Shown one piece after another: positions 1 to 10,637 of a stretch of DNA of 10,637 nt; position 1 is the first letter of the stretch; each line of letters opens with the position of its first letter. The DNA is from a virus (lineage: Duplodnaviria > Heunggongvirae > Uroviricota > Caudoviricetes). Position numbers and translations under genes: made by a program. The notes under the pieces were generated by a model that searched no databases, had not been told where the DNA came from, and saw nothing but the letters and a program-made list of their open reading frames with translations. Location of the stretch: positions 1-10,637 of IMG/VR virus record IMGVR_UViG_2529292908_000010; one strand, given 5' to 3'.

Positions 1-1119
1 TCAAATAACCAACTTAACCCATTCCTGACCTCGAGTATCGTTATAGCGATCGGTGGTAGCCTGGACTTTATGTCCCAGTAATGTTTTTGTATCGACACCC
101 TGTGCGCGGTACAACCGTTCTGACAGGGAGCGTTGTTCATGAAATGTTGGCGGTGTTTTTCCTGCTGGTGGAATTATTCCAGCCAGATCTCGCGCTTTGG
201 CGAAGTAATCGCTCAGGTTGTCTTTACTCATCGGTTTTGGTTGTTTCTGGTGCCTACTATGGATTAGGTATGGACTCAACATTCTGTCCCTGCATCCATC
301 AATAACTTCTTTTAACGATACCCCAATTTCATCGCATCGTAGCCTAAGAGGTAAGGCCAGACGCATTCCGGTTTTTCCTTGGGTTATATGTAGATGTCCA
401 TTCCATACATCTGAAAAACGCATGTGGCAAATGTCATCACGGCGCTGACCAGTAACAATCGCAAGAAGCATTGCGTTACGGATAAAGTGTTTTTCTGGCG
501 TTGCATTATAAATTTTTTGCCAGTCTTCCAGGGTGAGTCTGGATCTGGTCACTTTAGGGATCGGTTTACGGGTAGCCTCCGGAGGATTCCATCCAGGAGG
601 AACTTCTCCCGCATGCTGTGCTTCTTTATAAATATCAACCCATAATCCGCGATTTACTCTTGCTGTGCTGACCATGTCTTTATCCATCCACTCGTCCAGT
701 ATTAATGCAAAGTCTCTTACCTCCAGTTCTTTCAATGGGTGGTTTCCCAGGCGGGAAACCAGGTATGCAGCCATTCGCACTTTTTCTTTGTGGGTTGTAG
801 CTGCAATGTCTCCATTTTTCAGTCGCGAATCCTGTATTTTCAGATATCGATCAACCCATGCCTTTAATCTGATACCCCGACGTTTTGTTGCTGATGGACT
901 TTCATCAATTTTGCGCATGAAATATTCTGCTTCTGCTGCAGCTATTCGCTGATTGGCTGTTGCAGCGATTTTTTCTGCCTTGACTTTGTCTGTCCCAAGT
1001 CCGTGAAATTTTCCAGTCACAGGATTTTTATACTGGTAGTAAACCTTGCCAGTTCTGCGATCAAATTTTTCGTAAAGAGCTGCTACGTCAGTACTGTTTT
1101 TTCGTGGCCTCGGTGACAT
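1..1119 (-). CDS. int: Tyrosine site-specific recombinase, lambda Int family (prophage integrase)
   Basis: Complete 372-aa ORF, ATG at 1119-1117 and TAA at 3-1. Collinear with lambda Int from memory, including the HxxR box (TFHEQRSLSERLY) and C-terminal catalytic Tyr region (ATTDRYNDTRGQEW). First gene at the window edge, as at a prophage left end. Confidence 0.93.
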   Translation of the reverse strand: MSPRPRKNSTDVAALYEKFDRRTGKVYYQYKNPVTGKFHGLGTDKVKAEKIAATANQRIAAAEAEYFMRKIDESPSATKRRGIRLKAWVDRYLKIQDSRLKNGDIAATTHKEKVRMAAYLVSRLGNHPLKELEVRDFALILDEWMDKDMVSTARVNRGLWVDIYKEAQHAGEVPPGWNPPEATRKPIPKVTRSRLTLEDWQKIYNATPEKHFIRNAMLLAIVTGQRRDDICHMRFSDVWNGHLHITQGKTGMRLALPLRLRCDEIGVSLKEVIDGCRDRMLSPYLIHSRHQKQPKPMSKDNLSDYFAKARDLAGIIPPAGKTPPTFHEQRSLSERLYRAQGVDTKTLLGHKVQATTDRYNDTRGQEWVKLVI

Positions 1120-1357
1120 GGGTTAAAATCTCCTTCAGTGCGTCATCATCGCCAGTATGAATTTCCGGCGCAATTCCAGCTTCACCCGGTCCAACAAAGA
1201 CTGCGCGGCGATCTATTAGCCAGCGACCACGAATTTTTTGTGGTCTTGGTACGATGTATCCAAGTTTTCCGTATTTCACCAGGGTAGTGTTTGTTATTGG
1301 GAGACTGAACCGCTTAGGTTTCCACTCGTCGAGCGTAATCAGGTACTGTTCGCTCAT
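1088..1357 (-). CDS. xis: Excisionase (Xis-like)
   Basis: Small ORF directly upstream of int, overlapping its start by 32 nt as in lambda xis-int. N-terminus MSEQYLITLDEW resembles lambda Xis (MYLTLQEW...). ATG at 1357 has GGAG 8 nt upstream; the ORF track starts at an in-frame GTG at 1366, so the start is uncertain. Confidence 0.75.
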   Translation of the reverse strand: MSEQYLITLDEWKPKRFSLPITNTTLVKYGKLGYIVPRPQKIRGRWLIDRRAVFVGPGEAGIAPEIHTGDDDALKEILTHVTEATKKQY

Positions 1358-1418
1358 GACCATCACTCCGGAACGCGCCAGTTGCAGAATACCAACTACA
1401 ACCGGCGACGGTTGAACA

Positions 1419-3890
1419 TTAAAAATCAGCCTGACTCGGGATCAGTTTTTGCCAGATAACTGAAACGTATTTTGCCTGGTAACGGGCGTCATCAAGTGCA
1501 TTATGGCGCTCACCTTCGAATGGAATAGCCGTTCTGGCATCGAAGTCTATGGCTTTCCCCAGCTCAACGATTGTGCGTACATCGCGATCGTTGTAGTAAC
1601 GCCACGGGCAGGGGATCCCCTGCCGTTCGTATGAACGGCGCAAAATCGTGTTTTCGAAGTTGGCTCCATTTCCCCAGACCTGAACAAAAAATTCACCGGA
1701 GTTTTCGTCGATAAATTCCCGCAATTGTAACAGTGCATCATCTAACGGGATTTCATCGGTCATAATGGCAGACTGCGCTTCACGTGATTGCTTCAGCCAC
1801 CTTTTAATGACGTCACGATCAATGACTCCGCCAGCAGTTTCCAGATCGATAGTCTTACTAAATTCCGGTCCCATATCTCCGGTTTGCGGATCGAAAAATA
1901 TTGCATCTATTGAGATAATCGGGGCATCAGGATTTTTGCCCATTGTTTCAAGGTCAATCATCAGATGGTGCCACAACCTGCTGGTGGATGTGCTTTTACG
2001 ATGACCGTTCACCTTAATTAAGGGATTTGCTGTCTCGCCTATTTCATTATTGTCATTGGCATGTTGATCGCCTTCGGTGCACTCCTTGTTCGGGAGTCCG
2101 GCACTTTCTATTTCCTCTGGATCTTTTTCCCGGGCTTCATCCTGGCTTTCTTCGTTGAATGTCTCCTGGTAGGTTGCGTCACCCATCACTGCGCCACAAT
2201 CAGGGCAGTTACCACCACCAGTCTGATTGCATGCGGTACAAACTTTTTCCTCTTCCTGTTGCACGACTGGTTCAGGTTGTTTCGTTTCTGGCTCGTTTTG
2301 TAACGCATTTTGGCTGTTTTGTTCCGCTTTTTGGTCGTACTGTTCCGTTTCTGACTGGTTCTGGTGCACAGAATCGCGGGTTTCAATCCCCTTCACCCAT
2401 TTCGGATCATTCGGGTCGCTAATCCCTTCAACAAATTCACCACGTGATGCAGCGAGCAACTTATTAGCGTCAGGCTGGCTGATACTGGCTGCCTGCATAA
2501 TTTTGTTTACTTCGTCAGCGGTAACTTTTACCAGGTCTGGTTGTGCGGTCGTGTCAGATGCATCAGTATTTTGTTGTGAACCTGTGTATGTGCCGTTTTT
2601 GCGGGCAAAATATTCTTCTTTCGTGATTTCAGTTGCCCCGGCAGCCAGCGCCTTATCCAGACCAGAAAGTTTGTTTGCGCGACCGTATTTTTCGCCATCC
2701 TTGTCGGTGAAGAGGAAGTAGAACGGCCCCTCACGCTCTACAGATGGTTCGACTTCCACTTTGCATTCGGTTTTTTCGTTGTCCGGCATTGCCGTTTCCA
2801 CTGCATCAGCTTCTGGTACTGGCGACGGGAGAGTATTAGTTGTGCTCTGATTTGTTCCTTCATCTTCAAACACGCCCTTTGTAGTCAGGTATTCAGTGAT
2901 GTATTTGTTCAGCGCCACGGGATCTTTGTGAATGTCGATCGGACGTTCACGGACAAGGCCAAAAATAGTCTGACGGTCATAGCCAAGTGCTTCAGGCTGT
3001 TTGCGCATTGATGCCGAGATACGCTTCCAGTCTTCGCGGTCGTTGTCGATAACTTCATTTTTTGCCCAGCGATGGATGCTGCCGTCAATGTTTCCGGCAT
3101 CCACATCACCAGGCCAGAGAGCGTAGGCCAGTTCGTCATCCAGTGTTTTCCATGTCTGCTTGTATTCGCGATGAATGGCAGCAATGACCGGGCTGATTTT
3201 TCCTGTTGAATTTTCAGTGTGCTGTTGATTGGTTCTGGCGCGGGCGAGATCAACAACAGACGTGTATTTTCCTGTTTCCTTGCGTTCACCTTCGCGACGT
3301 TTTTTCCAGATGCGCATCTCTGCCTGAATTTCGGGCCATTTGGCACTAGGCTTACATTTATGCTTAACCCACCCGATGGCATGCAGCTTAAGCTCCGGAT
3401 ACATGGCGTTAACTTCTGGCATTTTCATCAACGCTTCAACGATATGTCCGTCGAATGTTGCCATGTCTTCCTGCAACAATTCCTGTGCGCTAATAACCAT
3501 ATCAACGGTGATGTTTTCACATGTGTCGAACTTAACCATGACAGCGTTCTGTACTTCAGGGGCCAGCTTGTCAAAAGTGACGTTCATCGGATCGGATTCA
3601 GTCTCAACCGGGACAAAGGAAGCAGACTCCTCATCCCAGCGGTTTTCCTGCATATATTCAGCATCCCATGAATCGAGGGCAGGGCGGGGTATGCCAGGTT
3701 TATCCTCGCAGACAATAAATTTATAAGCGCAGTCCTGAGCAGCCGGATAATGTTCCAGGAATTGCCAGTGAAATTTTGCTCGAGCACGGCGTTCGTCGCC
3801 AGCTTCAATGGCTGTGGCTACAGCCACAGCGCCTTCTTCCCTTGTTGCCAGTTCGTCAGGAATAGCGGCGCAAATAAAGACTTTACTCAT
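1419..3890 (-). CDS. Large early-left exonuclease (exodeoxyribonuclease VIII-like) with C-terminal DEDDh/DnaQ-like 3'-5' exonuclease domain and internal Cys4 zinc ribbon
   Basis: 823-aa ORF, ATG at 3890-3888, TAA at 1421-1419. C-terminal motifs MIDLETMG (Exo I), VWGNGANFEN (Exo II-like) and ERHNALDDARYQ (Exo III, H-x4-D). Central C-x2-C-x7-C-x2-C (CTACNQTGGGNCPDC) inside an acidic Q/E/N-rich stretch. Occupies the recE position upstream of xis-int. Family call is from motifs and memory, not a search. Confidence 0.85.
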   Translation of the reverse strand: MSKVFICAAIPDELATREEGAVAVATAIEAGDERRARAKFHWQFLEHYPAAQDCAYKFIVCEDKPGIPRPALDSWDAEYMQENRWDEESASFVPVETESDPMNVTFDKLAPEVQNAVMVKFDTCENITVDMVISAQELLQEDMATFDGHIVEALMKMPEVNAMYPELKLHAIGWVKHKCKPSAKWPEIQAEMRIWKKRREGERKETGKYTSVVDLARARTNQQHTENSTGKISPVIAAIHREYKQTWKTLDDELAYALWPGDVDAGNIDGSIHRWAKNEVIDNDREDWKRISASMRKQPEALGYDRQTIFGLVRERPIDIHKDPVALNKYITEYLTTKGVFEDEGTNQSTTNTLPSPVPEADAVETAMPDNEKTECKVEVEPSVEREGPFYFLFTDKDGEKYGRANKLSGLDKALAAGATEITKEEYFARKNGTYTGSQQNTDASDTTAQPDLVKVTADEVNKIMQAASISQPDANKLLAASRGEFVEGISDPNDPKWVKGIETRDSVHQNQSETEQYDQKAEQNSQNALQNEPETKQPEPVVQQEEEKVCTACNQTGGGNCPDCGAVMGDATYQETFNEESQDEAREKDPEEIESAGLPNKECTEGDQHANDNNEIGETANPLIKVNGHRKSTSTSRLWHHLMIDLETMGKNPDAPIISIDAIFFDPQTGDMGPEFSKTIDLETAGGVIDRDVIKRWLKQSREAQSAIMTDEIPLDDALLQLREFIDENSGEFFVQVWGNGANFENTILRRSYERQGIPCPWRYYNDRDVRTIVELGKAIDFDARTAIPFEGERHNALDDARYQAKYVSVIWQKLIPSQADF

Positions 3891-3985
3891 TTTGTTTTAA
3901 CCTCATTACAGATTTCAGGGTGAACGAATCCCTGCCATTGCTGGCATTTTTAATCCGTTGGTATGGCGTTAATATGGCTGGCGGG

Positions 3986-4174
3986 TTATCCAGCCGGTAT
4001 TGCGTTATTCAGGTTCAGCGATACTTTTTTTAACGGGAGGCATTCACCGGGGATTTTTTGTTCGTCCCTTACCTGAATGCAGGATGACTTACTGTCATAA
4101 ATTCCGGTAATCACATTTTGTGGCTCACCCGTTATAAGAAAAACGGTCATCACCAGTGCAAATGCTGAAGTCAC
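3986..4174 (-). CDS. Hypothetical small protein (62 aa), hydrophobic N-terminus
   Basis: ORF with GTG start at 4174-4172 overlapping the upstream stop (GTGA), GGAG 7 nt upstream. N-terminus MTSAFALVMTVFLITG is hydrophobic. No recognisable family; AT-rich context. Confidence 0.4.
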   Translation of the reverse strand: MTSAFALVMTVFLITGEPQNVITGIYDSKSSCIQVRDEQKIPGECLPLKKVSLNLNNAIPAG

Positions 4175-4359
4175 TGCTGTTCTCCGATAATACCAAGTTC
4201 AAGAAGGGCAATTCTGGAAAGTATGGAATTATCATTGAGAAGATAAGGTTCATATTTTCTCATCTTAATGGCATCTTCCGTAAACTCCCGGTTACTGAGC
4301 AGAACACCAATATCAAAACAACCTTCAGACGTATTAACGTTTGGTAATAACGTTTCCAT
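4171..4359 (-). CDS. Hypothetical small protein (62 aa)
   Basis: ATG at 4359-4357 with GAGGA 7 nt upstream; stop overlaps the start of the next ORF. No recognisable family. Confidence 0.45.
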   Translation of the reverse strand: METLLPNVNTSEGCFDIGVLLSNREFTEDAIKMRKYEPYLLNDNSILSRIALLELGIIGEQQ

Positions 4360-4376
4360 TATCGCGTCCTCAACAA

Positions 4377-4537
4377 TGAATTTTGTGATGCGGTGCCTGG
4401 TGCCTCCAGGTGACGTTAACCAGTTAACAATTAACGCCGGAATACAGAAGGATGCCCGTTACGCCCCGTAAAAGACCACTTTACGGTTTTAACTGTTCCG
4501 CGTGCGCATAGCCGCATTCACCGCATCACAAAATTCA
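4377..4537. repeat. Perfect 19-bp inverted repeat pair flanking a 123-bp palindrome-rich segment
   Basis: TGAATTTTGTGATGCGGTG at 4377-4395 and its exact reverse complement CACCGCATCACAAAATTCA at 4519-4537. Interior holds further palindromes (CCTGG-tgcct-CCAGG at 4396-4410; GTTAAC-cag-TTAAC at 4415-4428). Confidence 0.7.
4466..4490 (+). terminator. Terminator-like hairpin followed by TTTT (plus strand)
   Basis: CCGTAAA (4466-4472) pairs with TTTACGG (4480-4486), 7-nt loop, then TTTT at 4487-4490. Stem is AU-rich and no confident plus-strand gene lies upstream. Confidence 0.25.
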
Positions 4538-4835
4538 CTTTAAAAAGGGTGGCAGAGCAGTCACGGAGTAGAACTGATGCCACCAAATACTACACATGGG
4601 TATTGTGGCGGGGCTGTCACTTAAGCGTATGGTCAACCTGACGACCCGGTGCATTTTCTGGAGCAATGGAGGAAGCCCCAGCCATACTTACCGCCGCGCC
4701 ATTTCGCGGACTGCCACAACCGGAAGTGCACGGTCGAAGAAATTTAACGACAAGCCTTATATGCAAAGGAATCTCGCCGTGCGCTTTCGTGTTGTGTGCC
4801 TGCTTTTAACCACGTCAGGCGAGGTGGTTTCCGTC

Positions 4836-4864
4836 ATTCCCCAATAACAGGAAATCTGTATAAT
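4836..4864 (+). promoter_or_regulatory. Putative sigma70 promoter for the rightward membrane-protein gene
   Basis: Perfect -10 TATAAT at 4859-4864 preceded directly by TG; -35 is poor (ATTCCC/TTCCCC). Lies 35 bp upstream of the SD-ATG at 4898. Confidence 0.3.
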
Positions 4865-4897
4865 CTGGATATCCCCAACAACAGGAAGGTGTTTTAT

Positions 4898-5056
4898 ATG
4901 GTGGTTCAAAAGAATTGTTCAGGTACTGGTAAGCCTGCGGACAGGGCGGACATTCCGAATACCAGGAAACATATACCTGAGAAAAACATTCGACCAAAAC
5001 CATCTCCAGCTCCTTCAGAGGAGAGGGGGAACAGCAACAATCAAACAAGCAGGTGA
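4898..5056 (+). CDS. Hypothetical small hydrophilic protein (52 aa)
   Basis: ATG at 4898 with AGGAAGG 8 nt upstream; stop 7 nt before the next ATG. Pro-rich, low-complexity product and not in the track under this start, so it may instead be a leader region. Confidence 0.3.
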   Translation: MVVQKNCSGTGKPADRADIPNTRKHIPEKNIRPKPSPAPSEERGNSNNQTSR

Positions 5057-5062
5057 TGATAT

Positions 5063-5509
5063 ATGGACCGGGATGATATTCTTGACAGGGTTTTATATGG
5101 TTATTTTCTTGAACAACTATTCTCTGTAGCGACTGGTCGTCTCGATAAACTTTTCTCAGTGGTGAGTATTATCCTCGGTTCATCTGTCATTGGTGGATTT
5201 ATTCCTGAAGTTTCTGGAGTTCTCATCGTTGTGATAGCAACCGTTCAAACGATTTACGGATTCGGACAAAAGTCAGGTAACGCAATGAGAAAATCCGCAG
5301 AATATCTGCAGCTTTATGATGATGCAGAAAAATATTCCGATTCGGAATTGAAAATGCAGTTAAAGCTCCTGGAAAAAACAGATGATAATATTTGGTCGTC
5401 GCTTAAAGATATCGCAATCTTAAAAACCCAGATCAAAATAGGAATCTCCGTAGAACAACAAGAGAAACTGTCTGCAAAATCCAAATTGATGCGATTCCTT
5501 TGTGGTTAG
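5063..5509 (+). CDS. Small membrane protein, putative superinfection-exclusion / abortive-infection protein (SieB-like by architecture and position)
   Basis: 148-aa ORF, ATG at 5063 with AGGTGA 6 nt upstream. Two predicted TM helices (LFSVVSIILGSSVIGGFI; VLIVVIATVQTIYGF) then a charged helical tail. Rightward gene set among leftward early genes, as sieB is in lambda/Rac. Confidence 0.7.
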   Translation: MDRDDILDRVLYGYFLEQLFSVATGRLDKLFSVVSIILGSSVIGGFIPEVSGVLIVVIATVQTIYGFGQKSGNAMRKSAEYLQLYDDAEKYSDSELKMQLKLLEKTDDNIWSSLKDIAILKTQIKIGISVEQQEKLSAKSKLMRFLCG

Positions 5510-5607
5510 GAATACCCAGATTGTTAAAGAGCATGCCGAATGCTTACCCGTGTCCGGCGAACGTATTCCACTTCGCCTGTGGAGAACTCTTTAATTACTA
5601 ACCTTCA

Positions 5608-5760
5608 TCAGTCAGAGTTTCTTGCTAACCAGCGATGCGCGCCAGCTTCAGTTTTAAACGTTTTGCTTCTGGTATACGTCATCGCGGTAAACGTGCCGTC
5701 CTGGTTAGGGAACACACCACATACCAGAGATTCGTTGTTGCCAAGATTGAGCATATCCAT
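5608..5760 (-). CDS. Small hypothetical prophage protein (50 aa), YdaF/YdfA-like by size and position
   Basis: ATG at 5760-5758 with GAGG 5 nt upstream, TGA at 5610-5608. Product MDMLNLGNNESLVCGVFPNQDGTFTAMTYTRSKTFKTEAGAHRWLARNSD is not compositionally biased. Below the 60-aa track cutoff; translated by hand. Confidence 0.45.
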   Translation of the reverse strand: MDMLNLGNNESLVCGVFPNQDGTFTAMTYTRSKTFKTEAGAHRWLARNSD

Positions 5761-5933
5761 GTTGACCTCATTTCCCCTTAACGCCGGGTCGCGGAACTAA
5801 AAACCTGCTGCGCTGTTATACAAAGTGTTCCCGCCGTCATGTTCATACGCCTCGGGCTGGCTACTTAACCCCTGACCACTGCCGGGTAACTCTAGGTATT
5901 GCCTGGCGTTCTGTGGGACGGGGTGGTGAAGTT

Positions 5934-5963
5934 AGTTTATACAAAAATAAACTAAACAGCCAA
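5934..5963 (-). promoter_or_regulatory. Putative leftward early promoter (pL-like) with overlapping 20-bp operator-like palindrome
   Basis: Minus strand: -35 TTGGCT (5963-5958), 16-nt spacer, -10 TATAAA (5941-5936). Palindrome AGTTTA-N8-TAAACT at 5953-5934 overlaps the -10. Lies just downstream of the parE terminator. Confidence 0.4.
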
Positions 5964-5984
5964 TATGTAACTTAACGCTTTGGC

Positions 5985-6010
5985 GTAAATAACCCCCTTT
6001 TGAGAGGGGG
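5985..6010 (-). terminator. Rho-independent terminator of the repressor/toxin-antitoxin operon
   Basis: Minus strand: GC-rich stem CCCCCT/AGGGGG (6010-5993) followed by UUAUUUA (5992-5986), 16 nt after the parE stop. Confidence 0.55.
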
Positions 6011-6025
6011 CTTTGCTTCGGGGGA

Positions 6026-6313
6026 TTAAGGTGTTACAGGGAACTGTCGGCGGGCGTGAACTACGTTAACAATTTCAATGCCTGAAATTGTCACGCGGTA
6101 CAGTATTATGTAATTGGGGTGGGCTACAATTTCACGTAAACCGGGTACTCTGTCGCTTGGCGGGTATAAATACGGATGCTCAGATAATGGCAGAACGCAA
6201 GTCCTTAAGCGTTTCCACAAACGTTCTGCCGCATCTATGTCAAAACGTGCAATATAGCTGGTTATCTCATCTAGGTCGGTATCTGCGCTTTCAAGCCATA
6301 ACACGGGTAACAT
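6026..6313 (-). CDS. parE: ParE/RelE-superfamily toxin (ParE2-like)
   Basis: 95-aa ORF with RelE/ParE hallmarks (REIVAHPNYIILYRV...IEIVNVVHARR). ATG at 6313-6311 abuts the stop of the upstream antitoxin gene (TAA-ATG). Confidence 0.9.
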   Translation of the reverse strand: MLPVLWLESADTDLDEITSYIARFDIDAAERLWKRLRTCVLPLSEHPYLYPPSDRVPGLREIVAHPNYIILYRVTISGIEIVNVVHARRQFPVTP

Positions 6314-6505
6314 TTACTGTTTGCTCCGTTCCTTGCGCATTTTTGCAAAGCGTTCTGCCATTCTGCGTTCAACTTCGTCATGAGGAATAGCTGGACGTGG
6401 ATCAGCTAGGCTCGCGGCCACTTTTGCACGCAACCATTGGTTATAACTATTTTCTTGCTCGACGGTTTCAAATTCAGAAACCATTGGTGAAAGGGCTGTG
6501 TTCAT
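6314..6505 (-). CDS. paaA2: PaaA2-like antitoxin
   Basis: 63-aa ORF directly upstream of and coupled to parE, GAGG 6 nt before the ATG. Sequence (MNTALSPMVSEFETVEQENSYNQWLRAKVAASLADPRPAIPHDEVERRMAERFAKMRKERSKQ) matches my recollection of E. coli O157 PaaA2; recollection unverified. Confidence 0.8.
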   Translation of the reverse strand: MNTALSPMVSEFETVEQENSYNQWLRAKVAASLADPRPAIPHDEVERRMAERFAKMRKERSKQ

Positions 6506-6542
6506 ATGGTGAACCTCATCTTGTAAGTGCTGGTAAATCGGC

Positions 6543-6716
6543 CTAGGTAACTTTCTGTTGTGCTTCTAGCCACCTTGCAACTATACGATCCATTGCCTCT
6601 TTTTTCTCCTTCATATCTTTTAGCATTTGCTGTTGATCTTCCTCTGGAAATGCGTCAAATGTTTGAAGTAGTTCTTTTTGCCTAGGGGTTATTTTTAATA
6701 TACCCTGTGCCCTGTC
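6543..6716 (-). other. -1-frame continuation encoding the C-terminal domain of the PaaR2-like regulator
   Basis: From the slippery site the -1 frame reads DRAQGILKITPRQKELLQTFDAFPEEDQQQMLKDMKEKKEAMDRIVARWLEAQQKVT*, homologous to the C-terminal domain of the 6925..7338 gene. This frame opens only 4 codons before the slip site and has no usable start. Confidence 0.5.
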
Positions 6717-6937
6717 TTTTTTTCTTCATTTAATGGTAAGAAAAACCAATACTGAGGAAATCCCGTTACTTCAGATAGTTTATCTAGATTAGCTGCTGTA
6801 GGGCTTGAGATACCACAAACCCACCTTTGGACGGATTGTTGAGCAATACCAATTCTGCGCGCAAGTTCTGCTTGACTCCAGCCTTTTGTCAATAGAAGCA
6901 TCTTAATTCTAAGAGCACTAATTTCTAGTACGCCCAT
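6695..6937 (-). CDS. XRE-family HTH regulator, N-terminal part of a PaaR2-like regulator
   Basis: 80-aa ORF with classic XRE motif (LTKGWSQAELARRIGIAQQSVQRWVCG), first gene upstream of the antitoxin. Ends 5 codons after an A_AAA_AAG heptamer, beyond which the conserved C-terminal domain continues in the -1 frame. Confidence 0.75.
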   Translation of the reverse strand: MGVLEISALRIKMLLLTKGWSQAELARRIGIAQQSVQRWVCGISSPTAANLDKLSEVTGFPQYWFFLPLNEEKKTGHRVY

Positions 6938-7338
6938 TTGATATCTCTTGTTTTAGTATGTCTCTCGTCAGGCTCGGCGACCTTGCTGCGCCAACCAACG
7001 TGCAACAAGATCTTCCATTGCCTCTTTTTGTTTCTTAGTTCTTTTATGATCTCCTGCTGCTCATTATCAGGAAATGCACTAAATATTTGTAGCAATTCCA
7101 ATTGGTTAGGGGTTAATGCTATAGGTCTTGATGGCGGAGCTCCTGTTATGTCTTCTGGCTCAATATCAAGATAACCCCCTGGCATCCCATATGTTTGTTC
7201 AATACGTCTAGCCGCCTTTTCGCCAAACGTAGCTTTACCGCTCATTAATTGAGATAAGTAACTTTTCTCTTTAGGTGGCAAAGTCCTGTCTTTGAACCAC
7301 TCTTTGAGGCGTAAACGCCGAATCTCTTTTGTTTCCAT
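6925..7338 (-). CDS. Repressor-position HTH regulator (cI/RacR positional analogue), paralogous to the PaaR2-like regulator
   Basis: 137-aa ORF from ATG 7338 (track starts at GTG 7344), divergent from the Cro-like gene. N-terminal phage-repressor-like HTH (SYLSQLMSGKATFGEKAARRIEQTYGMPGGYLD); C-terminal domain (TPNQLELLQIFSAFPDNEQQEIIKELRNKK) homologous to the 6543..6716 segment. No SD, consistent with leaderless translation. Confidence 0.8.
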   Translation of the reverse strand: METKEIRRLRLKEWFKDRTLPPKEKSYLSQLMSGKATFGEKAARRIEQTYGMPGGYLDIEPEDITGAPPSRPIALTPNQLELLQIFSAFPDNEQQEIIKELRNKKRQWKILLHVGWRSKVAEPDERHTKTRDIKWAY

Positions 7339-7344
7339 ATACAC

Positions 7345-7373
7345 ATTATCTTTAGTAATTGCAAAATAAGCAA
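7345..7373 (-). promoter_or_regulatory. Putative pRM-like promoter giving a leaderless repressor mRNA
   Basis: Minus strand: -35 TTGCTT (7373-7368), 17-nt spacer, -10 GATAAT (7350-7345), placing the start site at or next to the A of the ATG at 7338. Motif-based only. Confidence 0.35.
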
Positions 7374-7377
7374 ATGC

Positions 7378-7407
7378 TTGACTAGTTTGTTTAGTTGTGT
7401 ATAAACT
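7378..7407 (+). promoter_or_regulatory. Putative pR-like promoter with overlapping 20-bp operator-like palindrome
   Basis: -35 TTGACT (7378-7383), 16-nt spacer, -10 TATAAA (7400-7405). Palindrome TGTTTA-N8-TAAACT at 7388-7407 overlaps the -10, 16/20 identical to the one at 5934-5953. Confidence 0.5.
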
Positions 7408-7439
7408 TTATGTGTTCTAAATGTGCAGAGATAAAAGTT

Positions 7440-7721
7440 ATGACGTTAAAGGAATTCATCAAATCATTAAAAACTGGAGAAGCCAAAAAATTTGCGGCCA
7501 ACCTTGGTGTGTCTCCGTCCTTCTTATCCCAAATGGCATCTGGAAATTCACCTGTGTCTCCTGTTCGTGCGTTGATGATAGAAGCTGAAACAGGAGGACA
7601 TGTTACAAGACGAGAGTTGAGGCCTAATGACTGGGAGCTTATATGGCCTGAATACACTGGAAGCACGCCTCCTTCACGTCACAAATATGAACTTAACTCC
7701 AAAAAGCTGATGGGGGGGTGA
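7440..7721 (+). CDS. Cro-like HTH protein (YdaS-type)
   Basis: 93 aa from ATG 7440 (upstream in-frame ATGs fall inside the promoter). Cro/YdaS-like motif KKFAANLGVSPSFLSQMASGNSPVSPVRALMIEAETGGHVTRRELRPNDWELIWPEY. Divergent from the repressor gene. Confidence 0.8.
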   Translation: MTLKEFIKSLKTGEAKKFAANLGVSPSFLSQMASGNSPVSPVRALMIEAETGGHVTRRELRPNDWELIWPEYTGSTPPSRHKYELNSKKLMGG

Positions 7722-7724
7722 TTC

Positions 7725-8162
7725 ATGAAAATCAAGCATGAGCACATCCGTATGGCGATGAATGCGTGGCTGCTTTATCCGAGAGTGGGGCGCAAAAAAA
7801 TCGCTGATGATATAGCAACAGCATATTTTGAGCTTGAAATGACTTATCCACCAATGCATGACACCTCTACGACAGAGGGTATTGGATTGAACATACAAAA
7901 TATTTTTCGCTGGCTTGAAAAGGATACGCCTGATGCTGTTGAAAAAATTCAGGCACTAATTCCGGCGATCCTGACTGTTCTTCCGCGTGAACTGCGTTAT
8001 CACCTCAGTATTTTTGACACTGTTGAGCGCCGTGCATTACTGGCGGCGCAGGAAGCGTTGAGCACGGCAATTGATGCACATGATGATGCAGTCCAGGCCG
8101 TTTACCGGAAAGCGTATTTCAGCGACGGCGGGTCATCCGGCGAGTCTGTTGTGGTGCATTGA
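7725..8162 (+). CDS. YdaT-family protein (CII-position regulator)
   Basis: 145-aa ORF starting 3 nt after the Cro-like stop, G-rich SD upstream. Size, sequence character and position match Rac YdaT-type proteins. Confidence 0.85.
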   Translation: MKIKHEHIRMAMNAWLLYPRVGRKKIADDIATAYFELEMTYPPMHDTSTTEGIGLNIQNIFRWLEKDTPDAVEKIQALIPAILTVLPRELRYHLSIFDTVERRALLAAQEALSTAIDAHDDAVQAVYRKAYFSDGGSSGESVVVH

Positions 8163-8248
8163 TATTTATGCCAGACCCCTGCTGATTCTGTTGATTGGGG
8201 AATCACAGAATATCACCAGAGGATGGTTCGTCACAAGATGAGGCAATT

Positions 8249-9262
8249 ATGGCCGCATTACCATACATGCAACTGTACATAGCTGATTACCTGGCTGACA
8301 CCATGCATTTGTCTGCAGAGGAGCACGGCGCGTATTTGTTGCTGATGTTTAATTACTGGCAAACAGGGAAACCAATACCTAAAAACAGGCTGGCAAAAAT
8401 TGCCCGTCTGACTAACGAGCGATGGGCTGATGTTGAACCATCCTTGCGGGAGTTTTTTTGCGATAACGGCGATGAATGGGTGCATCTTCGGATTGAGGAA
8501 GATCTGGCATCAGTCAGGGAAAAATTAACCAAAAAATCAGCCGCCGGAAAAGCATCTGTTCAGGCCAGAAGAAGCAGAAAGGAAGCATATGTTCAAACAA
8601 AACAAGAGAGAGATTTAACAGGTGTTCAAACAAATGTTGGTGTTGTGTTTGAACATGACGCAAACACAAAAGCAACTAATAAAGATACAGATCTAAAAGA
8701 ATTAAACCCCACACATAACGTGCGTGAGCGCGAGAGTATTCCGACCAGTGAGTTGCATGGTGCGCCGTTGCAGACAGCCGAACCTGAATACCTGGACGGC
8801 CTGAGCGAACCGATCGGGAAATTTTCGATGACCACTGTCTGGCAGCCGTCGCCGGATTTTCGACAACGGGCAGCAGTGTGGGGTATGGCTCTGCCTGAGC
8901 CGGAATTTACACCTGCTGAACTTGCCGCCTTCAGGGACTACTGGGCAGCTGAGGGGAAAGTTTTTACGCAGGTTCAGTGGGAGCAGAAATTCGCCCGTCA
9001 CGTAAATCACGTCAGGGCGCAGGTTAAACCAGTCAGCAAGGGGGTGCGTCATGCAGCAGCACCAGGTGGCACCGCATCACGGGCAGTTCGGGAAATTCGG
9101 GCAGCACGTGAGCAGTGGGAACGTGAAAACGGATTTGTCAGCGACGGAAACGGCGTGGAAGCTGTGGGAGCTCATGGGGGAGGTTTATTCAAACCGCTGG
9201 ACTCAGAAGAACGGGGCCGCACCTTCGAAGCTCTGGATTGCCCAGATTGGCGCGATGACTGA
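8249..9262 (+). CDS. Replication initiation protein (lambda O positional analogue; YdaU/DUF1376-like N-terminal domain)
   Basis: ATG at 8249 with GAGG 5 nt upstream (track starts at TTG 8195). N-terminal domain YMQLYIADYLADTMHLSAEEHGAYLLLMFNYWQTG is YdaU/DUF1376-like. Iteron-like repeats sit in the interdomain linker. The last ~70 codons overlap the P-like ORF and are low-complexity, so the true 3' end is uncertain. Confidence 0.8.
   Translation: MAALPYMQLYIADYLADTMHLSAEEHGAYLLLMFNYWQTGKPIPKNRLAKIARLTNERWADVEPSLREFFCDNGDEWVHLRIEEDLASVREKLTKKSAAGKASVQARRSRKEAYVQTKQERDLTGVQTNVGVVFEHDANTKATNKDTDLKELNPTHNVRERESIPTSELHGAPLQTAEPEYLDGLSEPIGKFSMTTVWQPSPDFRQRAAVWGMALPEPEFTPAELAAFRDYWAAEGKVFTQVQWEQKFARHVNHVRAQVKPVSKGVRHAAAPGGTASRAVREIRAAREQWERENGFVSDGNGVEAVGAHGGGLFKPLDSEERGRTFEALDCPDWRDD
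8590..8655. repeat. Iteron-like repeats (candidate replication origin) inside the O-like gene
   Basis: TGTTCAAACAAA at 8590-8601 and 8623-8634 (direct), TGTTTGAACA at 8646-8655 (inverted copy of the 10-mer core), followed by an A-rich stretch at 8661-8700. Confidence 0.4.
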
Positions 9263-9716
9263 ACAGCAAATCAGGCTGGTCTGCCGTCAGTGCATGGACC
9301 GCTGCCGGGCGGGTGAAACGTGGCCCCCGGACCTGGCTGAGTTTGTTGCGCTGATTTCGGAGAGTGGGGCAAATCCATTTGGTCTTACGGTGGATGCCGT
9401 GATGGAAGAGTACCGGCGCTGGCGCAATGAATCCTGGCGGTACGACGGGAGTGATAAATACCCGTGGCCACAGCCTGTGCTGTACCACATTTGCCTCGAG
9501 ATGCGCACCAGAGGGATTGAACGTCAGATGACTGAAAGTGAGCTGAAACGACTTGCAGAACGACTGTTGACCAAATGGGCAAAGAATGTTGGTAACGGCA
9601 TGAGTGTTCCGCCAGTGCGACGACAACTGGAAGGGCCAAAACACCCGCCAGGGCCAACGCCAATTGAGTTACTGAAACAGGAATATGAGCGCCGGAAAGC
9701 GGCTGGTTTTGTCTGA
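9051..9716 (+). CDS. Lambda P-like replication protein (helicase loader)
   Basis: 221-aa ORF, ATG at 9051 with AGGGGG SD. Collinear with lambda P from memory (WPPDLAEFVAL vs PSPGQFVAWC; YPWPQPVLYH...ELKRLAERLL vs YPWKSNAHYW...ELRRKAADEL). Start uncertain; internal ATG at 9174 is possible. Confidence 0.8.
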   Translation: MQQHQVAPHHGQFGKFGQHVSSGNVKTDLSATETAWKLWELMGEVYSNRWTQKNGAAPSKLWIAQIGAMTEQQIRLVCRQCMDRCRAGETWPPDLAEFVALISESGANPFGLTVDAVMEEYRRWRNESWRYDGSDKYPWPQPVLYHICLEMRTRGIERQMTESELKRLAERLLTKWAKNVGNGMSVPPVRRQLEGPKHPPGPTPIELLKQEYERRKAAGFV

Positions 9717-9749
9717 ATTTGAGAAATGATTTTGTCGGAGGAAATTTTA

Positions 9750-10463
9750 ATGGAAACCGTTTTTGACGCACTGAAAGCACTGAAAAGAGCCTCTTCACAG
9801 GAGGTGTCGGCCCGCCTTGGAATCAGCCGCGAAGATGCTGTCAACGAGCTGTGGAAGCTGAAACGCCGTGGTGAAGCAGATAACAAGGGGTCGATGTGGT
9901 GGCTGACGATTGAGGCAACTGAAATGGTCACAAAAACCACTGCGGAGATGCTGATTAACTCAATTGAACAGCATGGTCCTCAGTCGGCTGACGAACTGGC
10001 GTTAATGTTCGGGATTACCTCCCGCCGGGCGAATTCAACGCTGGCAATGGCAATAAGCAAAGGTCGTCTGATTCGAGTAAATCAGAACGGTAAATTTCGT
10101 TACTGCCTGTCGGGCGATAATTTACCAGCAGAGCCGAAAGCTGCATCGGTAACGGAAACTGCTGGTAAAGCCTTTCCTCAGACAGCAGGTGTTGCGTTAC
10201 CAGTCCGGGAAGCGGAAACACAGGAAGAAATTAAAACTGAAAGTGTGGCGGTCACAGTGCAGTCACAGCCGTCGTTCACCAGAAAGCATCCGGATAGTCT
10301 GATTTTACCATCGCTGCATGTGGCTAACCGCGAACTGCGCCGGGCAAAAGGTCAGGTTCAGAAGTGGGAGCGAGTCTGTGCTGCGCTGCGTGAGCTGAAC
10401 AAGCACCAGGATATTGTTCGACAGATTGTCGATTCCTCCAGTCGTATTGTGTCGGAAAAGTGA
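9750..10463 (+). CDS. Hypothetical protein with two winged-helix-like segments
   Basis: 237 aa from ATG 9750 with GGAGG 8 nt upstream (track start 9726 has no SD). Two HTH-like segments ([28 protein letters not shown]; [32 protein letters not shown]). Sits directly after the P-like gene. Confidence 0.75.
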
Positions 10464-10478
10464 TTGCCGGAGGTACTT

Positions 10479-10637
10479 ATGGCAAGAGTATTTACACAGG
10501 AAGAGCGGGAAGAAGTGAAGGCGCGCATTGTGGAATTCGTGCGCCTGAGCGGACGAGAAACTTTTCGACAACTGGCAGATAAAACGGGTGTCAGTAAGAC
10601 CGCTATTCGTCGTTTACCCAATCAAAAGCAGGGGTGA
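10479..10637 (+). CDS. Small hypothetical protein (52 aa) with HTH-like segment
   Basis: ATG at 10479 with GGAGG 7 nt upstream; TGA at 10635-10637 is the last codon of the window. Product MARVFTQEEREEVKARIVEFVRLSGRETFRQLADKTGVSKTAIRRLPNQKQG. Below the track cutoff; translated by hand. Confidence 0.5.
   Translation: MARVFTQEEREEVKARIVEFVRLSGRETFRQLADKTGVSKTAIRRLPNQKQG

Follow-up and report, generated by a model that had tools for sequence, protein, structure and literature searches.

The question raised by this locus is whether two similar palindromes, lying at opposite ends of a leftward operon of repressor and toxin-antitoxin genes, are the operators of one regulatory switch, as oL and oR are on either side of cI in lambda. 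They lie in a 10,637-nt stretch of DNA from a Caudoviricetes virus (IMG/VR record IMGVR_UViG_2529292908_000010, positions 1 to 10,637; the whole stretch is hereafter called the window), which represents the immunity region of a lambdoid prophage of Rac/CP-933P type. The two palindromes very probably serve as strong operators, OL at 5935-5952 and OR at 7389-7406, in a bistable switch governed by the regulators PaaR2 and YdaS. The layout of OL and OR, their half-site and their regulators were already published in 2021 for the prophage CP-933P, and the window is a new allele of that system.

The left site (5934-5953, AGTTTATACAAAAATAAACT) has arms of 7 bp, AGTTTAT/ATAAACT, and its 18-bp core is GTTTATTTTTGTATAAAC on the minus strand (5952..5935). 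In the right site (7388-7407, plus strand, TGTTTAGTTGTGTATAAACT; core GTTTAGTTGTGTATAAAC, 7389-7406), pairing is limited to the 5-bp arms GTTTA/TAAAC. A preliminary description, made from the sequence alone, had presented them as two related 20-bp palindromes with 16 of 20 positions in common. Both elements are present as described, but 17 of the 20 positions agree when the left site is read on the minus strand, and the arms of the right site pair without its outer T/T. The core common to both is thus the 18-bp repeat GTTTA-N8-TAAAC, whose two exact copies are non-random: 0.01 would be expected in 10,637 nt, and none of 200 shuffles reached two. The likeness extends beyond the cores, as an inverted repeat of 30 nt, the best of the region, links 5934-5963 to 7378-7407, its arms being 80% complementary. 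The two 30-nt copies match at 24 positions, a value that none of 500 dinucleotide shuffles of both intergenic regions attained (their mean was 17.0, their maximum 22).

Each of these copies is a promoter, and each palindrome core begins 5 nt past a -35 hexamer. The leftward promoter, PL (5934..5963, minus strand), has TTGGCT as its -35 (5963..5958), leads to the DUF1391 gene, DicF and dicB, and contains the left site in its spacer and -10. The rightward promoter, PR (7378..7407, plus strand), recovered by a promoter scan, has TTGACT (7378-7383) and drives ydaS, ydaT and the replication genes. The pairs noted earlier, TTGGCT-TATAAA leftward and TTGACT-TATAAA rightward, do occur with 16-nt spacers (TATAAA at 5941..5936 and 7400-7405). 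A second -10 option, TAAACT, follows an 18-nt spacer in both promoters (5939..5934 and 7402-7407), and the consensus promoter scan called TTGACT, 18 nt and TAAACT for the rightward one. In an alignment of ten promoters (PR and PL of the window, of E. coli BA92 and GF60, of CP-933P and of Yersinia aleksiciae), TAAACT is invariant in 10 of 10 and retains A at position 2 as well as T at position 6, whereas TATAAA is confined to window-type alleles and has no T at position 6. This favours TAAACT, the right half-site of the repeat, which appears more likely than TATAAA to be the true -10. Whichever hexamer is used, it falls inside the operator: the proposed overlap between palindromes and -10 elements stands, but with TATAAA as the less likely of the two elements.

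An operator role for such repeats has been established by experiment in CP-933P (Sp12) of E. coli O157:H7, in which PaaR2, YdaS and YdaT are the analogues of cI, Cro and CII and the promoters are PRM933P, PR933P, PL933P and PRE933P (Jurenas et al. 2021, PMC8630535). PaaR2 and YdaS bind the 97-bp paaR2-ydaS intergenic region, as seen by electrophoretic mobility shift assay and DNase I footprinting, and four inverted repeats of 18 bp (IR1 to IR4), with the half-site consensus GTTTAGTAA, lie in the protected DNA; two well-conserved repeats overlap the promoters PRM933P and PR933P, and two of the four are half-degenerate (PMC8630535). The starts of both promoters were mapped by 5' RACE, the paaR2 transcript being leaderless and starting on its start codon (PMC8630535). 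Beyond the toxin gene, PL933P has the -35 and -10 of PR933P and similar operators; it is active, and PaaR2 and YdaS each repress it about 100-fold in gfp fusions (PMC8630535). PR, PRM and PL are all repressed by YdaS, which footprints on oR, and the authors note that PaaR2 forms octamers, like cI (PMC8630535).

When the CP-933P sites are read from an O157:H7 genome (locus L002, which carries the 97-bp intergenic region), the sites at PL (2700), PRM (3686, CTTTAGTAATCACTAAAC) and PR (3725, GTTTATTAAACACTAAAC) are all of the GTTTA-N8-TAAAC class, and the PR one begins 5 nt past the -35 TTGACT. OR is the equivalent of IR3, which has the same offset, and OL, identical in E. coli BA92 and RM10466, is orthologous to the PL933P site. 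In both prophages, parE2, paaA2 and paaR2 are read leftward and face ydaS and ydaT, read rightward; PL duplicates the -35 and -10 of PR; operators overlap PL, the PR -10 and, 39 nt upstream of the latter site, PRM; the PRM hexamers and their leaderless geometry are the same; and a probable YdaT site lies at the ydaS/ydaT junction. The window differs from CP-933P in its proteins (61% identity over the whole of PaaR2, 58% for YdaS), in its operator centres, in its PL -35 (TTGGCT) and in the distance between the centres of OL and OR (1454 bp versus about 1025 bp). It also has an extra, HTH_3-type repressor gene between paaR2 and paaA2, and frameshifts in both of its repressor genes.

The suggestion that operators comparable to oL and oR flank the repressor operon thus corresponds to a layout demonstrated in the orthologous CP-933P (PMC8630535), with two adjustments. 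There is indeed one strong site at each end, but oR has at least one further site, over PRM; and PaaR2 does repress both PL and PR of CP-933P, as expected of one repressor acting on both early transcripts, but YdaS is expected to share its sites. Binding, repression of PR, PRM and PL, start sites and bistability have all been shown in CP-933P, and by analogy we infer the same for the window allele.

The cI analogue itself is encoded at 6925..7338 (minus strand). In a phmmer search against the PDB, residues 1-66 of its product match chains 7NKV/8C3K/8C3L (E = 2e-31), labelled "Phage repressor protein CI", and the stretch KEKSYLSQLMSG...FGEKAARRIEQTYGMP is that of the PDB chains but for two conservative changes. 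These chains start with MQKKE, the sequenced N-terminus of CP-933P PaaR2 (PMC8630535), which identifies 6925..7338 as the PaaR2 orthologue; the DNA-binding domains of the window and CP-933P proteins share about 92% identity. A literature search on the PDB codes returned no paper on a PaaR2-DNA structure. No Pfam domain was matched in the 6925..7338 product, and hence no S24 domain; the intact protein would have 123 residues. The preliminary description had taken this product for a repressor distinct from PaaR2, which its DNA-binding domain contradicts, and had called "PaaR2-like" another open reading frame (ORF), which actually encodes an HTH_3-type paralogue with only the C-terminal domain in common with PaaR2. 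This paralogue (6543..6937, minus strand) is the one extra gene between the repressor and the paaA2-parE2 pair, in the same operon. The ORF as read covers 6695..6937, its first 80 residues matching Pfam HTH_3 (E = 3e-12).

A third, weaker operator, CTTTAGTAATTGCAAAAT, lies at 7350-7367, in the spacer and -10 of a PRM-like promoter read from the sequence (7345..7373, minus strand; -35 TTGCTT at 7373..7368, 17 nt, -10 GATAAT at 7350..7345). The GATAAT is followed by 6 nt and then by the paaR2 ATG at 7338, with the same hexamers and spacing as in CP-933P, a geometry which implies that the paaR2 mRNA would be leaderless here as well. The left half of this site matches GTTTAGTAA at 8 of 9 positions (1 mismatch) and its right half is degenerate; it begins 39 nt ahead of the PR site, as IR1, its equivalent, does ahead of IR3 in CP-933P. 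The half-site alone is uninformative, since GTTTAGTAA with up to two mismatches is not enriched in the window (27 found, 28 expected). A position weight matrix (PWM) was built solely from the CP-933P, Yersinia and Photorhabdus sites, with no window-type site among them. Its three best matches among about 10,600 window positions are 5935, 7350 and 7389, in that order. The fourth-best, GTTTAATTACTGGCAAAC at 8347-8364, lies inside the DnaT-like replication gene, 1 mismatch away from the operator pattern, and is probably a chance match.

When the repressor protein was used to scan a contig set with a single genome for each species, no relative came up; the wider comparison therefore draws on contigs located through exact protein look-up, together with complete E. 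coli genomes. Among E. coli, BA92 and GF60 are relatives at 86-92%. Across the ten aligned promoters, the invariant columns are TTG.C in the -35, TTTA in the left half-site and TAAACT in the right half-site, and the 8-nt operator centre is variable; the sites and their placement are thus conserved across three prophage lineages. In the Yersinia aleksiciae prophage (L015, CP011975), the repressor, of 210 residues, joins a PaaR2-type DNA-binding domain to an S24 peptidase, and GTTTA-N8-TAAACT recurs at 2928-2961 and 4784-4818 of that locus, over a near-duplicate PR and PL. These read TTGACG...GTTTAGTGTTTA(A/G)TAAACT, one on each side of the repressor gene, and PL precedes an N-like gene. Judging from its sequence, the Yersinia locus would be an SOS-inducible version of the same pair of operator and DNA-binding domain; relatives in which this domain is fused to PF00717 exist in Yersinia and in other genera. 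No such operator site is present in a Salmonella relative whose recognition region has diverged. In Photorhabdus, a PaaR2-like gene in a non-prophage context (contig L016) is preceded by GTTTATTAATTATTAAAC at 2973-2990; HipA_2 and DUF3037 genes come after it, the genes lying within 3001-5137, and the locus may be another regulator-plus-toxin module using the same operator. Finally, megablast against phage records gave partial matches only. Escherichia phage Evi (L019, LR597642, 40 kb) has an immunity region of CP-933P type with the same three operator sites, at 2642, 3628 and 3667. As Evi is a deposited phage genome, the switch is not confined to cryptic prophages.

All these results can be brought together in a model. 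The operator would be an 18-bp inverted repeat, (G/A)TTTA-N8-TAAAC, whose right half, TAAAC(T), doubles as the likely -10. PaaR2, with an N-terminal helix-turn-helix, a C-terminal helical oligomerisation domain and no S24 peptidase domain, would bind the repeats at PL and PR as dimers and so keep RNA polymerase off the -10 and spacer. Occupation of PR would keep ydaS, ydaT and the replication genes off, and occupation of PL the DUF1391, DicF and dicB genes, while the weak site at 7350-7367, inside the PRM-like promoter, would allow paaR2 to be autoregulated. YdaS, the Cro analogue, would compete for the same DNA and thereby make the switch bistable. As PaaR2 is reported to form octamers, a loop of 1.45 kb between OL and OR could also be formed.

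Several points weigh against this model. The arms of the PR site are only 5 bp long, OL and OR each have one strong site, IR2 and IR4 lack a clear counterpart, and past the -10 the right part of oR cannot be aligned between the window and CP-933P. The PWM is weak, as a comparable top score (mean 9.6) is obtained from mononucleotide shuffles of the window, and only the placement of its three best matches is informative. The exact bases touched by PaaR2 and YdaS were left open in the published work (PMC8630535). Finally, the paaR2 frame of the window is broken 18 codons before its end, and the repressor may be inactive here.

This last point leads to the alternative that survives best. Compared with E. 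coli relatives and with otherwise identical contigs, paaR2 is one base short at 7025-7029, where a run of six T is reduced to five. The deletion replaces the last 18 residues by 32 unrelated ones and makes an ORF of 137 residues, whereas the unshifted frame would stop at 6968-6970, after 123. The C-terminal domain aligns with that of CP-933P PaaR2 up to ...RNKK, beyond which the frame is lost for the last 18 residues. With this frameshifted tail, the 6925..7338 ORF as it stands is thus the wrong protein to purify, although its product had been put forward for that use. The HTH_3 paralogue is likewise one base short, at 6717-6723 (T8 to T7), which leaves an 80-residue HTH_3 ORF and an out-of-frame C-terminal part. 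If both deletions are real and both repressors inactive, the palindromes may be intact operator relics, either under YdaS alone, in a locked anti-immune state, or uncontrolled.

We regard this alternative as possible but rather doubtful. In its favour, the window differs from contig L007 over 6198 nt by these two deletions and by zero substitutions, with one deletion in each repressor gene; both deletions recur in two contigs whose read sets (SRR491164 and SRR094133) are independent; and no change is seen in four runs of 7, or in other runs of 6, within the same 6 kb. Against it, both deletions are in homopolymers, the commonest place of sequencing errors, T8 being the longest run of the region, and six contigs of otherwise identical sequence keep both genes whole, with 131 residues for the HTH_3 gene in L007 and its kin. 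Moreover, the N-terminal DNA-binding domain of PaaR2 is intact in the window and most of its C-terminal domain is still encoded.

One could also suppose that PL and PR are merely two duplicated AT-rich promoters, the inverted repeat being a by-product of their TAAACT -10 with no operator role. The short arms of the PR site, the coincidence of its right half-site with the -10 and the absence of enrichment of half-site-like 9-mers in the window would fit such a duplication. It would, however, explain neither why the left half, (G/A)TTTA, is invariant at a fixed distance of 8 nt in 10 promoters of three lineages while the centre varies, nor why the repeat is also found over PRM and 5' of the non-phage Photorhabdus gene, outside any PR-type promoter. 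As both regulators moreover footprint on the orthologous CP-933P region (PMC8630535), we consider this explanation very improbable. Even less credit can be given to binding of the palindromes by the HTH_3 paralogue (6543..6937) instead of the 6925..7338 product: although it belongs to the same operon, has a bona fide HTH_3 domain and has the PaaR2-like C-terminal domain in common, the palindromes are present without such a paralogue in CP-933P, phage Evi and the Yersinia prophage, and E. coli 2015C-3121 (L018, 2473-2871), where it is the sole repressor in the cI position, with homologues of paaA and parE after it, has in its oR and oL other repeats, of AACTTTWWAAGTG type, none of which was found in the window.

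The PaaR2/YdaS switch thus remains the preferred explanation of the palindromes, and the L018 locus, with its sole repressor and other operators, indicates that window-type prophages carry two immunity-type repressors in tandem, a state which probably arose by recombination. It is conceivable, if unlikely, that these repressors, with different DNA-binding domains and the same PaaR2-type C-terminus, have separate uses: the HTH_3 one would give immunity against heteroimmune L018-type phages, or mixed oligomers would couple the two specificities, and slippage in the homopolymers would act as a reversible immunity switch.

The other genes of the window complete the picture of an immunity region. 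The leftward operon ends with the paaA2-like antitoxin gene (6314..6505, minus strand; Pfam PaaA2, E = 8e-21; 94% identical to CP-933P PaaA2) and the parE2-like toxin gene (6026..6313, minus strand; Pfam ParE_toxin, E = 4e-16), and is closed by an intrinsic terminator-like hairpin found by a terminator scan (5993..6010, minus strand), which separates it from PL. Rightward, PR is followed by ydaS, encoding the Cro analogue (7440..7721, plus strand; Pfam YdaS_toxin, E = 4e-10; 58% identical to CP-933P YdaS), by ydaT, encoding the CII analogue (7725..8162, plus strand; Pfam YdaT_toxin, E = 1e-10), and from 8195 by the DnaT-like replication gene (plus strand). At the junction between the ydaS stop and the ydaT start, GTGATTCATGAAAATCAA (7718-7735) is probably the PRE / YdaT site, because it is 1 mismatch away from the YdaT operator of CP-933P, TTGATT-N6-AATCAA (PMC9986795). 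On the PL transcript, upstream of dicB, the small RNA DicF is encoded at 4547-4598 (minus strand; E = 6e-12 and 62 bits to Rfam RF00039). The leader between PL and the DUF1391 gene (5761-5930, minus strand, about 170 nt) is conserved across the CP-933P and L018 immunity types and also matches several phage records. Its interpretation as a structured antitermination RNA was not supported, given that 5761-5930 gave no fold signal (z = 0.39) and no Rfam match.

The window resembles lambda in having a leftward repressor operon with accessory genes, placed between outward PL and PR bearing the same palindromic operators, and in its divergent PRM and PR, its predicted leaderless repressor mRNA, its Cro analogue expected on shared sites and its CII analogue on a probable PRE-like site; an oligomerising repressor that could loop OL to OR is a further likeness. 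It differs in that no sequence homology with cI or Cro of lambda is detectable, and in that its repressor has no S24 autocleavage domain, so that no RecA-mediated induction is expected. In place of tandem 17-bp operators, three per end, it has 18-bp repeats of another sequence, with one strong site at OL and one strong plus one weaker site at oR, and a toxin-antitoxin pair stands in place of rexAB. In an outline comparison with the Rac prophage of E. coli K-12, the order of exonuclease, kil/dicB, repressor, ydaS, ydaT and replication genes is the same, but RacR is another repressor with other operators.

As the arrangement had already been described and tested in CP-933P, the window brings little new biology. 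What it adds is first a better annotation: which ORF is PaaR2, the positions of PL, PR and PRM, and the frameshift in each repressor ORF. It also provides a sharper definition of the operator, drawn from three lineages, as (G/A)TTTA-N8-TAAACT, whose right half-site would also be the -10. Finally, the same pairing of DNA-binding domain and operator appears to serve S24-type, SOS-inducible repressors in Yersinia.

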